Source: a candidate division WOR-3 bacterium (lineage in GTDB: Bacteria; Hydrothermota; 32-111). Taken from it: a stretch of 64,000 nucleotides of DNA. The position numbers were made by a program, and so were the translations under genes. Positions 9,801 to 10,398 of this stretch are shown here, piece after piece. A model generated the notes under the pieces. It saw only the letters and a program-made list of their open reading frames with translations. It made no database searches and had not been told where the DNA came from. Every line of letters starts with the position of its first letter. Within the stretch, counting starts at the first letter, position 1. The stretch lies in NCBI GenBank assembly GCA_037481815.1, contig JBBFKX010000001.1, positions 736,001 to 800,000 of the forward strand, given 5' to 3'.

Positions 9801-10264
9801 GAAGCTACAAATACATAATCATAAAACTCAAATTGATTGATATTTTCTCTTACTACATAGACATCTTTTACTTCTTCAGCATAAGGTTTTAACTGAAAAA
9901 CTTTTGAAGGATTTCTTGGATCTGAAACATCCATTACCACAAGTCCTTGCATATTGTATGCTATAAAGGCATGATTGTCCAAAACTGCAATTTTAAGAGC
10001 ATAATCAGATGAATCAGAAGGTGTAACAATTTGATAACTACTTACTAAGGATGGTTCTAAATGGTTTGATATATCAACTATTTTCATCCCTCCAGAAGCA
10101 GCAGCTATATAAGCATAATTACCAGATACGACCACATCTTCTGCAAATCCGAAGTCAATCCAACCAGTTTTTGTACAATTCAAAGAATCATAAACGATTC
10201 CTTCTTCAGAAGCTATGCAAAGTAATCCATAAAAAATAACTATTGTTATGAGAATAGCCCTCAT
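6860..10264 (-). CDS. Large secreted LVIVD-repeat / Asp-box protein with T9SS-type C-terminal domain
   Basis: Signal peptide MRAILITIVIFYGLLCIAS; N-terminal LVIVD repeats; Asp-box RSEDFGQTW; tail VYDIRGS..SGIYFVRI..RKINIIK. Confidence 0.85.
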   Translation of the reverse strand: MRAILITIVIFYGLLCIASEEGIVYDSLNCTKTGWIDFGFAEDVVVSGNYAYIAAASGGMKIVDISNHLEPSLVSSYQIVTPSDSSDYALKIAVLDNHAFIAYNMQGLVVMDVSDPRNPSKVFQLKPYAEEVKDVYVVRENINQFEFYDYVFVASKGHFLIYKIKGDLFGTYWLEGDKEIAKIEGILASGVHVVGNHAYLADEESGYLRIVELPNKLDSLGQTPIKIVGNVMTGKPFDVFVEENYAYVIDVKNGFTIVDISNSSNPRIVKQYRDSYYVPEEGSAFIVNSDKMKIAYVGLKSFGLIVFDVTDISNIKHIGHYGSLYTSFGSIGVCPVDNIIYTASYKNGLEVIEHLKNGYRFTMTYTPEKLKYEDKTEISVVLKKDYGDRGPFYNMDGNGNDAQVYIEDKNGIRISDIKKPDETGKVIFEILKEDTFPIYIVSKNEITTDQIEKQEVKVDYRLFKVSYPKECPVLKNNLFSIKVQTEYELPVIEPEPKQIIIENVPDASVIITDNIGAYNVSGLTDTNGNINFSAYLKSNRALQIIIDKKGFVKYSSTITPYLWSNVRGAFGRNNQEHIVRKPNTDEMEMLYTTGDSVVYGRSEDFGQTWELEILGKGKEPALTRTKDGLIAIWKEGESTFWYSIKHSPWTPVDTLISPTVWFTEPVVGYNYTTDKTYMGYIGNRYLNIERGDYILGSMEGIDIGTLVFDTVVSYYGEDNKVPMKSPVFSLFYDISSTSISHLIGFIDTTKNYMKKDWNNSYGQWTELSTINKSGQVCNAPTADYYGEVTTFAYEVINIDGTRDIWKAKMIDGFLTEPERINTFIGVNKYPKVKNNYLHLYVNNDKKLISEPGYGLTIEQNIIRETTDSIFSYDVNFKDTYTNRKGFFIWTEGENGFYRLNMKEVSYKTEPVPYVISLPQDTIERVTTSPLYDNNYLGRKEPVERLNTTIVGLDPEMSYNVRVITSEGSPVKPQIIQIDGEVYGVVYGHANREDTTEIVLPKGIYEDNKIVISIDRKKGNPNRVSKVEVYQYETEGENEIVTANKVKVLQAVNMTETTEVKGKKEGLKVSYISDREGEVEIEVYDIRGSRLGIMKSQVKAGLNEIGIGLVQKSGIYFVRIRDGEKGETRKINIIK

Positions 10265-10269
10265 AACAA
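10243..10269 (-). promoter_or_regulatory. Hairpin sequestering the start codon of the 1134-aa gene
   Basis: mRNA UUGUUAUGAG-GGCUAUU-CUCAUAACAA: perfect 10-bp stem containing the AUG at 10264. Extendable by GGCUA/UAGUU after a UU bulge. Confidence 0.7.
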
Positions 10270-10347
10270 AATAGCCCTTTTTGTAGAGAGAGAGAGAGAG
10301 AGAGAGAGAGAGAATAATTCTCCCTTTAAATGATAATTTTTCTTCAT
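10261..10347 (-). CDS. 28-aa leader peptide (uORF) containing a CT microsatellite
   Basis: SD AAGGAGGT then ATG 10347: MKKNYHLKGELFSLSLSLSLSTKRAILL*. Its TGA (10263-10261) overlaps ATG 10264 as ATGA. Confidence 0.7.
   Translation of the reverse strand: MKKNYHLKGELFSLSLSLSLSTKRAILL
10285..10313. repeat. (AG)14/(CT)14 simple sequence repeat, candidate phase-variation tract
   Basis: Perfect AG x14 plus one A; the only long dinucleotide tract seen in the window. Confidence 0.97.
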
Positions 10348-10369
10348 ACCACCTCCTTTTTATGAAAAA

Positions 10370-10398
10370 AGATTAAACTATTTTTTTATATTTGTCAA
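10370..10398 (-). promoter_or_regulatory. sigma70-type promoter for leader peptide and secreted-protein block
   Basis: TTGACA (10398-10393), 17-bp spacer, TAATCT (10375-10370), just upstream of the leader SD. Confidence 0.6.

Follow-up and report, generated by a model that had tools for sequence, protein, structure and literature searches.

A simple sequence repeat (SSR) at the 5' end of a gene for a 1134-amino acid (aa) secreted protein in an uncultivated candidate division WOR-3 bacterium is probably a contingency locus, in which replication slippage switches expression ON or OFF through a frameshift in an extension of the signal peptide. The repeat lies in a 64,000-nt stretch of contig JBBFKX010000001.1 (assembly GCA_037481815.1, positions 736,001 to 800,000), referred to here as the window. 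The genome under study, G000, comprises 1.58 Mb in 20 contigs with 31% G+C, and the region of interest, locus 1, spans positions 10238-10398 of the window on the minus strand. An original prediction had described locus 1 as a short leader open reading frame (ORF) containing a (CT)14 tract, coupled to a start codon locked in a hairpin, the whole forming a three-state translational switch. Every sequence feature listed in that prediction is present (Table 1). The comparative evidence points to a different assignment of the parts, in which the supposed leader is the beginning of the gene itself.

In the proposed mechanism, translation would start at the ATG at 10347, which is preceded by a strong Shine-Dalgarno (SD) sequence, and the (CT)n tract would be part of the coding sequence: it would fall in an extension at the N-terminal end of the signal peptide, with a basic N-terminus on one side and the hydrophobic core on the other. 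Replication slippage would add or remove CT units. At 13 or 16 units the gene would be read in frame (ON) and yield a long pre-sequence; with 12, 14 or 15 units, ribosomes initiating at the strong start would terminate early, and the gene would be OFF. Signal peptidase would cleave off the long pre-sequence, so that the mature protein would be independent of tract length. Two elements of the original prediction are retained here: a slippage-prone repeat that sets the frame of a secreted protein, here one sorted by the type IX secretion system (T9SS), and a repeat that stays out of the mature protein. Tract length indeed differs between near-identical genomes.

The tract has several of the properties by which contingency loci are recognized, being 100% pure, located between the likely native start and the body of the ORF, and polymorphic among close relatives. 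Tandem Repeats Finder reports it as 10285-10313, with 14.5 copies and a 100% match. The distance from the upstream ATG to the inner ATG is 83 nt, and the three frame outcomes proposed originally were borne out when the number of CT units was changed in silico. With 11, 14 or 17 units the upstream ORF stops on the ATGA that overlaps the inner start; with 10, 13 or 16 units it fuses in frame with the gene; and with 12, 15 or 18 units it stops 56 nt into the gene.

Repeat-bearing paralogs in the same genome

Support for a repeat-driven switch came from the other long repeats of G000. Dinucleotide runs of at least six units number three in the genome, namely (CT)14, (CT)16 and (AT)6, and both long CT/AG tracts lie at the 5' ends of paralogous genes. 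At the (CT)16 tract, locus 2, the order is TTGACT, AAGGAAGT, ATG, MRKIKNFKSISF, tract, and a stop at an ATGA. In frame, with 15 or 18 units, locus 2 would encode MRKIKNFKSISF(LS)nNTIVLLSILFMIASFPISIFA/QEK, a textbook signal peptide on a protein of ~920 aa. The inner ATG of locus 2 lies in the middle of the hydrophobic core and would yield MIASFPISIFA, with no basic n-region.

Runs of G or C of at least 8 also number three in G000, and two of them are at the 5' ends of further paralogs. The order at these poly-C loci is TTGACT, AAGGAGGT, start codon, basic N-terminus, ACTATCG-C8-GATACTTAC and hydrophobic core, and both loci are one base out of frame. There is no canonical start before the hydrophobic core at the first poly-C locus, and the second has one only in mid-core. 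Counting the 1134-aa gene itself, four G000 paralogs with assembled 5' ends share this protein's C-terminal module, and all four have (CT)n or poly-C at the same 5' site. The putative switch is a property of a small family of T9SS surface proteins. Seven other LVIVD or T9SS-tail genes were examined; in six of them an SD is followed by a plain MKK-hydrophobic core with no SSR, and the seventh is cut off by the end of its contig.

The upstream start codon

Evidence that translation begins at the upstream ATG came from alleles of two paralogous loci in which the frame is open. P0129, a 921-aa protein from another assembly, clusters with the locus-2 protein at 90% identity. It starts MKKSKNVNLT(LS)5NTIISLFILIIMVNLFPISIFPQD and matches the G000 locus-2 protein from KYLMSDDF on. 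Its signal peptide is canonical and includes (LS)5, and in place of the locus-2 ATGA it has ATGG. Similarly, in the C9 allele of the poly-C locus in genome G001, the frame is open from the upstream start. In both cases the frame of the homologous upstream start continues across the tract and on into the protein, which contradicts the idea of a dedicated leader ORF. The idea of a leader separate from the gene is also at odds with the 4 of 10 CT lineages that lack an ATG or GTG within ~40 nt of the tract, near the hydrophobic core. Across the CT lineages, the codon homologous to the inner ATG is GTG, ATG, GTG, GTA, CTG, CTT or absent. These sequence comparisons indicate that the "leader" is most likely the gene's own native 5' end, frameshifted in the 14-unit state, and that the (CT)14 state of locus 1 is most likely OFF, at most leaky, and one unit from ON.

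Predicted folding also distinguishes the two start codons. The 63 nt around the inner ATG fold with -15.7 kcal/mol, more stable than 99% of the 280 SD-led starts of G000 (mean -6.5 kcal/mol, sd 2.9), in agreement with the earlier claim that this start is unusually structured; the inner ATG would therefore be usable only behind an upstream ribosome. The region of the upstream ATG, at -6.9 kcal/mol, is at the 41st percentile of SD-led starts and thus ordinary. The absence of a good SD at the inner ATG was considered as a further argument and set aside as weak, since a strong SD is present at only 30% of the long ORFs of G000.

The DNA that follows the tract (ACAAAATCAGCGTTT(T)AGA...) is conserved among paralogs and is read in different frames, encoding TKSAF[RK] in some and QNQR[FL]R in others. 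One post-tract sequence read in different frames is what would be expected of a region in which the tract makes the frame fluid. The G001 and G002 orthologs of the 1134-aa gene were deposited with three internal starts (1079, 1101 and 1112 aa), all of them 3' of the tract. This example shows how genes of this kind come to be mis-annotated; annotations ought to mark them as phase-variable and to take the 5' end from a reading that crosses the tract.

Distribution and tract length in relatives

The arrangement recurs in related genomes as a promoter, AAGGAGG, a start codon, a basic N-terminus, (CT)n, a short linker and the hydrophobic core of a signal peptide. CT tracts of at least 8 units number 16 and occur in 7 of 14 genomes of the order and 2 of 5 genera, with this layout common to 14 of the 16. 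Across the phylum, tracts of at least 9 units were found in 8 of 41 relatives. The poly-C paralogs have orthologs in four sister genomes. At all loci with the same layout the SD ahead of the upstream start is AAGGAGG, once AAGGAAG; SDs of the AAGGAGG type precede 280 of 919 long ORFs in G000, versus 105 of 1577 in background sets.

Tract lengths differ among these loci (Table 1). For the poly-C locus, identical flanks enclose C8 (twice in G000, and in G004), C9 (G001) or C10 (G002 and G003). Matching flanks likewise enclose 14 versus 15 units at locus 1 (G000 and G003) and 16 versus 18 units at locus 2 (G000 and G002). Since length differs between genomes with the same flanks, tract length changes on a short evolutionary scale. 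Perfect tracts are nevertheless kept in orthologs of 43-52% protein identity, in two genera. The length and frame of locus 2 in G003 are unreadable because two N interrupt the tract in the public assembly.

DNA of the window is also present in contigs from sediment and soil metagenomes, and the Logan contigs of all four runs examined end at 10273, the edge of the tract. Metagenome scans with the locus-1 flanks and a variable gap, and with the tract end and the conserved linker motif, gave 0 matches each. A comparison of the 1134-aa protein with a contig collection that excluded near relatives gave one weak, unrelated match.

A (CT)9 tract of another kind was seen in a different family of the same phylum (G022:C15:30955-30972, minus strand). 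It is in a short ORF that has no SD and stands behind a TTGACA promoter, and it is located 5' of small genes with their own GAGGAGGT sites. This arrangement could be of a true leader type.

Observations that weigh against a classical repeat switch

Several observations argue against the reading of locus 1 as an ON/OFF switch with a single start codon. An in-frame allele of locus 1 is absent from all five assembled orthologs (G000, G003, G001, G002 and G013:C64), and none was found in the protein collection, where the only forms seen were those of 1134 aa and one C-terminal fragment. More broadly, 2 of 19 evaluable loci with the same layout (13 CT and 6 poly-C) are in frame, where one third would be expected, and one of these two, G012:C50, is a remnant ORF of ~97 codons past the tract. 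The frames of G013:C4 and G012:C50 were worked out by hand. The nearest computed binomial probabilities for this bias toward OFF are 0.033 (2/18) and 0.059 (2/16), and the bias is suggestive only, because the loci are related and not independent. Selection for OFF, consensus calling and indel errors are possible causes. The tract lengths given here are those of assemblies.

Other points concern the inner ATG. Translation from this codon would give a short signal peptide of normal type (MRAILITIVIFYGLLCIA), similar to those of the paralogs that have no SSR. In 6 of 10 lineages the hydrophobic core begins with an in-frame ATGA or GTGA, versus a background of 0.119 per 12-codon window in G000 ORFs; the corresponding p is about 4e-4 if the lineages are independent, and the comparison is post hoc. 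Finally, the hairpin over the inner ATG is non-random and is left unexplained by a classical switch.

Possible reinitiation at the inner start codon

The original prediction invokes coupling at the inner ATG. At 14 units, ribosomes would stop on the ATGA, unfold the hairpin and start again from the inner ATG, producing a coupled and probably lower ON state with the short native signal peptide; 13 or 16 units would give the fused long pre-sequence, and 12 or 15 units would be OFF. Bacterial operons are known to use termination-reinitiation where stop and start codons overlap, and at locus 1 both the ATGA overlap and the hairpin that occludes the inner ATG are real. The canonical signal peptide from the inner ATG is also consistent with its use, as is the recurrence of in-frame ATGA or GTGA at the core start, given that GTG is a rare Val codon in G000 (0.74% of codons). 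The stops of both OFF frames are no more than 4 nt from the inner start in three lineages.

The homologous loci do not bear this arrangement out: 1 of 10 lineages has the hairpin and 6 of 10 have a canonical inner start, so the overlap of stop with occluded start holds at locus 1 and is not conserved. Three paralogs have GTA, CTG or CTT in place of the inner ATG, and in a fourth a start codon is lacking altogether. The GTA, CTG and CTT paralogs still have the OFF-frame stops at +14 and +19, which argues that the stops, and not the start, are conserved; these stops seem to have been inherited or to be under selection for early termination. The ATGA start of locus 2, in mid-core, predicts a truncated, non-functional signal peptide, and in P0129, the naturally occurring ON allele, the start used is the upstream one. 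In other lineages there is no SD ahead of the inner start, and where an inner start is present, no counterpart of the weak AAGGG of locus 1 is visible in the linkers. An ancestral start of the MKK type may be what the inner start goes back to. With a strong upstream start, the ATGA and a melted hairpin, a three-state switch is physically plausible at locus 1 alone, where we consider it unlikely; it is not the design of the family, and it fails at locus 2.

The hairpin itself has a predicted energy of -11.1 kcal/mol for the core and -19.2 kcal/mol when extended. Perfect stems of at least 10 bp with 3-8-nt loops number 94 in 1.57 Mb, or ~1 per 17 kb, and one contig has 28 of them versus 4-8 in Markov simulations. 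At ~1 stem per 17 kb, a chance hairpin on a given start codon is improbable (roughly 0.004). The original prediction had named a lack of conservation of the hairpin and ATGA in homologous loci as a refuting result. The hairpin was seen in 1 of 10 lineages, and the z-score of post-tract folding is -3.0 at locus 1 and between -1.6 and +0.8 in nine other lineages; the hairpin was therefore rejected as a family feature and is confined to this lineage. It was also rejected as a repeated element or operator, as the arm is unique in G000, apart from a single match with 3 mismatches. Two copies of an 8-nt direct repeat, GGGCTATT, in 10245-10280 (minus strand) flank the 5' arm of the hairpin. This direct repeat would fit a template-switch origin, and the hairpin is compatible with having arisen by a local template-switch mutation.

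A related proposal applies to more of the lineages. An in-frame ATG or GTG sits where the out-of-frame readings stop (TAG-N-ATGA or TAA-N-GTGA clusters), and reinitiation there would produce a "soft-OFF" state. This proposal is tentative, and we regard it as doubtful. If true, the repeat would toggle between a strong form with a long pre-sequence and a weak form with a short pre-sequence and would never be fully off, and the 10-bp hairpin would make the inner start of this lineage strictly dependent on upstream translation. A soft-OFF state would be an SSR switch with a second output from downstream reinitiation, and no description of an SSR switch with such an output was found in the literature searched.

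Improbable alternatives: no working switch, or attenuation

It is also conceivable that there is no working switch, and that the frame is shifted because of an assembly or consensus error at a low-complexity tract, or because the gene is a decaying pseudogene whose repeat expanded neutrally. Tract length rests on assemblies, given that the Logan contigs end at the tract edge in 4 of 4 runs, and 17 of 19 evaluable loci are out of frame. Against this explanation, downstream ORFs remain open for at least 900 aa after the tract at 10 of 14 CT loci and at both G000 poly-C loci; of the remaining four CT loci, three are at contig ends or were not extended (including 382 aa at G009:C118 and 20 aa at G013:C4), and one is a remnant. 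The retention of perfect tracts in distant orthologs and the different tract lengths between the same flanks in independent assemblies also argue against it. We consider this explanation very improbable.

Attenuation of the kind described for Streptococcus gallolyticus pil1, in which the hairpin would be a premature transcription terminator and the leader stop set by the repeat would decide whether a ribosome blocks it, is still less probable: there is a published precedent in a GCAGA-repeat leader peptide with a stem-loop terminator (available sections of PMC3894217), and the locus-1 hairpin scores as terminator-like in a consensus scan (12 pairs followed by the tail TAGTTATTTT, an AT-rich stem inside an ORF), but the stem has 3 G-C pairs, is not conserved, and is reached or passed by ribosomes in all three frames, which stop in the 5' arm, stop 56 nt beyond the ATG, or do not stop, so no frame leaves the terminator free, pil1 logic cannot discriminate between frames at locus 1, and this explanation was rejected on frame geometry.

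Comparison with known systems

Most known cases of phase variation driven by repeats are in pathogens and commensals adapted to a host. In the opa genes of Neisseria, a host-adapted pathogen, CTCTT repeats lie in the signal-peptide region of surface-protein paralogs, and the repeat, whose unit is a pentamer, is removed from the mature protein. The closest parallel to the locus as interpreted here, a classical repeat switch, is Helicobacter pylori oipA, and also sabA, for which the portions of the reports available describe CT repeats in the signal-peptide coding region whose frame sets ON or OFF (PMC10564699; PMC2715451). As far as those portions go, the likeness extends to a change in unit number that shifts the frame, a surface product, and several paralogs per genome. 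Unlike H. pylori, the WOR-3 host is an uncultivated environmental bacterium and the cargo is a T9SS-sorted LVIVD protein; the WOR-3 tract is in an additional N-terminal extension that precedes a second basic cluster; and the WOR-3 paralogs, whose switching is predicted from sequence, use (CT)n or poly-C at the same site.

The original prediction knew of no example of its exact architecture. Published precedents are the CT-repeat genes of H. pylori, an SSR leader with a hairpin (pil1), and Haemophilus influenzae lic2A, with graded output from several start codons; the logic of pil1 does not fit locus 1. In the accessible text on S. gallolyticus pil1 (Danne et al. 2014, PMC3894217), an SSR leader peptide is coupled to a hairpin. 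Like locus 1, pil1 has a short, SD-led repeat ORF upstream of a gene for a surface structure, followed by a stable stem-loop, and repeat number sets the stop. According to the same text, the pil1 leader always remains separate from the gene, a transcription terminator of -18.7 kcal/mol in the intergenic region is what the stem-loop represents, and one frame stops 39 bp upstream of the terminator and leaves it free. In contrast, the WOR-3 short ORF fuses with the gene in one frame, the hairpin lies over the inner ATG, and every frame brings ribosomes there.

As a general rule, such switches have one ON state per two OFF states, an exception being Haemophilus influenzae lic2A, with several upstream start codons (PMC4235727, in the part of the text available). 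Locus 1 is like lic2A, as described there, in having a 5' SSR that could give more than two expression levels if more than one start codon is usable. The additional lic2A starts are 5' of the repeat and in different frames, whereas the candidate second start of the WOR-3 locus is 3' and would need reinitiation. The accessible text of one review (PMC11868660) has no mention of signal peptide, leader peptide, start codon or reinitiation. In the literature searched, which covered SSRs with reinitiation and contingency loci in metagenome-assembled genomes, no paper was found that mentions both WOR-3 and phase variation, and no description of this type of locus in the WOR-3 lineage was found.

Locus 1 is notable for its WOR-3 host, for the four-gene set with two repeat types at one site, and for the possible side-route through reinitiation. 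At least four T9SS surface-protein genes are apparently switchable in this uncultivated WOR-3 bacterium with its small genome. Such a set of switchable surface genes implies strong and fluctuating selection on the cell surface, for example by phages, predators or a partner organism. Slippage would produce such variants within a population, and the ON form of locus 1 would require that the long pre-protein, with its fused pre-sequence of 58 residues, is exported.

Features of locus 1 and the encoded protein

The -10 box of locus 1 matches TATAAT at 3 of 6 positions, and a promoter scan made no call there. The candidate is supported by its position, which matches TAATAT or TATAAT boxes at the same spacing in paralogous loci.

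Table 1. Features of locus 1, repeat tracts of G000 and CT tracts of related genomes. Positions without a contig name are those of the window.
Feature	Position	Strand	Remark
-35 box TTGACA	10393..10398	(-)	sequence read; TTGACA/TTGACT equally placed 5' of the SD in same-layout loci
-10 box candidate TAATCT	10370..10375	(-)	17-nt spacer after the -35 box
Strong SD AAGGAGGT	10351..10358	(-)	sequence read
Upstream ATG, likely native gene start	10345..10347	(-)	in-frame homologous starts in P0129 and the G001 C9 allele
28-codon ORF as assembled (MKKNYHLKGELFSLSLSLSLSTKRAILL*)	10261..10347	(-)	ORF reading; interpreted as frameshifted 5' end of the gene
Perfect (CT)14 tract, G000 locus 1	10285..10312	(-)	14 units; in frame would encode (Ser-Leu)n
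Weak SD-like AAGGG	10275..10279	(-)	10 nt 5' of the inner ATG
ATGA	10261..10264	(-)	inner in-frame ATG (10264-10262) overlapped by out-of-frame TGA (10263-10261)
Perfect 10-bp hairpin, 7-nt loop, spanning the inner ATG	10243..10269	(-)	arms 10269-10260 and 10252-10243
1134-aa ORF	6860..10264	(-)	LVIVD repeats, uncharacterised middle module, T9SS type A sorting domain
Locus 2, (CT)16	G000:C1:842190-842221	(-)	16 units; ahead of 890/920-aa T9SS paralog
Poly-C (C8) tract	G000:C1:71872-71879	(+)	same relative site, further paralog
Poly-C (C8) tract	G000:C1:480417-480424	(-)	same relative site, further paralog
Ortholog of locus 1 (98% protein identity, near-identical flanks)	G003		15 units
Orthologs of locus 1 (52% identity)	G001 and G002		10 units
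Ortholog of locus 1 (43% identity)	G013:C64		12 units
CT tract	G012:C11		13 units
CT tract	G013:C7		15 units
CT tract	G009:C118		15 units
CT tract	G012:C12		11 units
CT tract	G013:C4		8 units
CT tract	G012:C50		8 units
Locus 2	G002		18 units
Locus 2	G003:C20		11 units with two N inside the tract

The 1134-aa protein matches Pfam LVIVD with E=1.2e-34. Its T9SS sorting domain scores 27.9 bits with TIGR04183 (cut-off 23), and Pfam Por_Secre_tail scores 23.4, below the cut-off of 27. G000 has 43 T9SS-tail matches above the family cut-off. No Pfam family was found on residues ~350-1060, and no sequence relatives of the protein were found in the PDB. The middle module of the ORF (6860-10264) contains SEDFGQTW at about residues 600-620, which we take to resemble the Asp-box motif (SxDxGxTW).

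A fifth paralog extends from C1:851493 to the contig end at 855597 on the minus strand, with an open frame of 1371 aa and its 5' end missing. The break of contig C1 at this paralog may be at another repeat; the 7-nt unit AACTATT occurs three times at 851309-851329. Elsewhere in the window, a tandem repeat at 3059-3406 (period 126 nt, 2.8 copies, 82% match) lies within a gene for a 739-aa LVIVD-repeat protein. No alternative haplotig of the locus was found among the small contigs of G000. Several of these contigs (C6-C9, C11, C12, C15, C17 and C18, 500-850 nt) have a common element of 35-50 nt that is also present in C1-C3, for example at C1:297022-297070 and C3:275137-275203.

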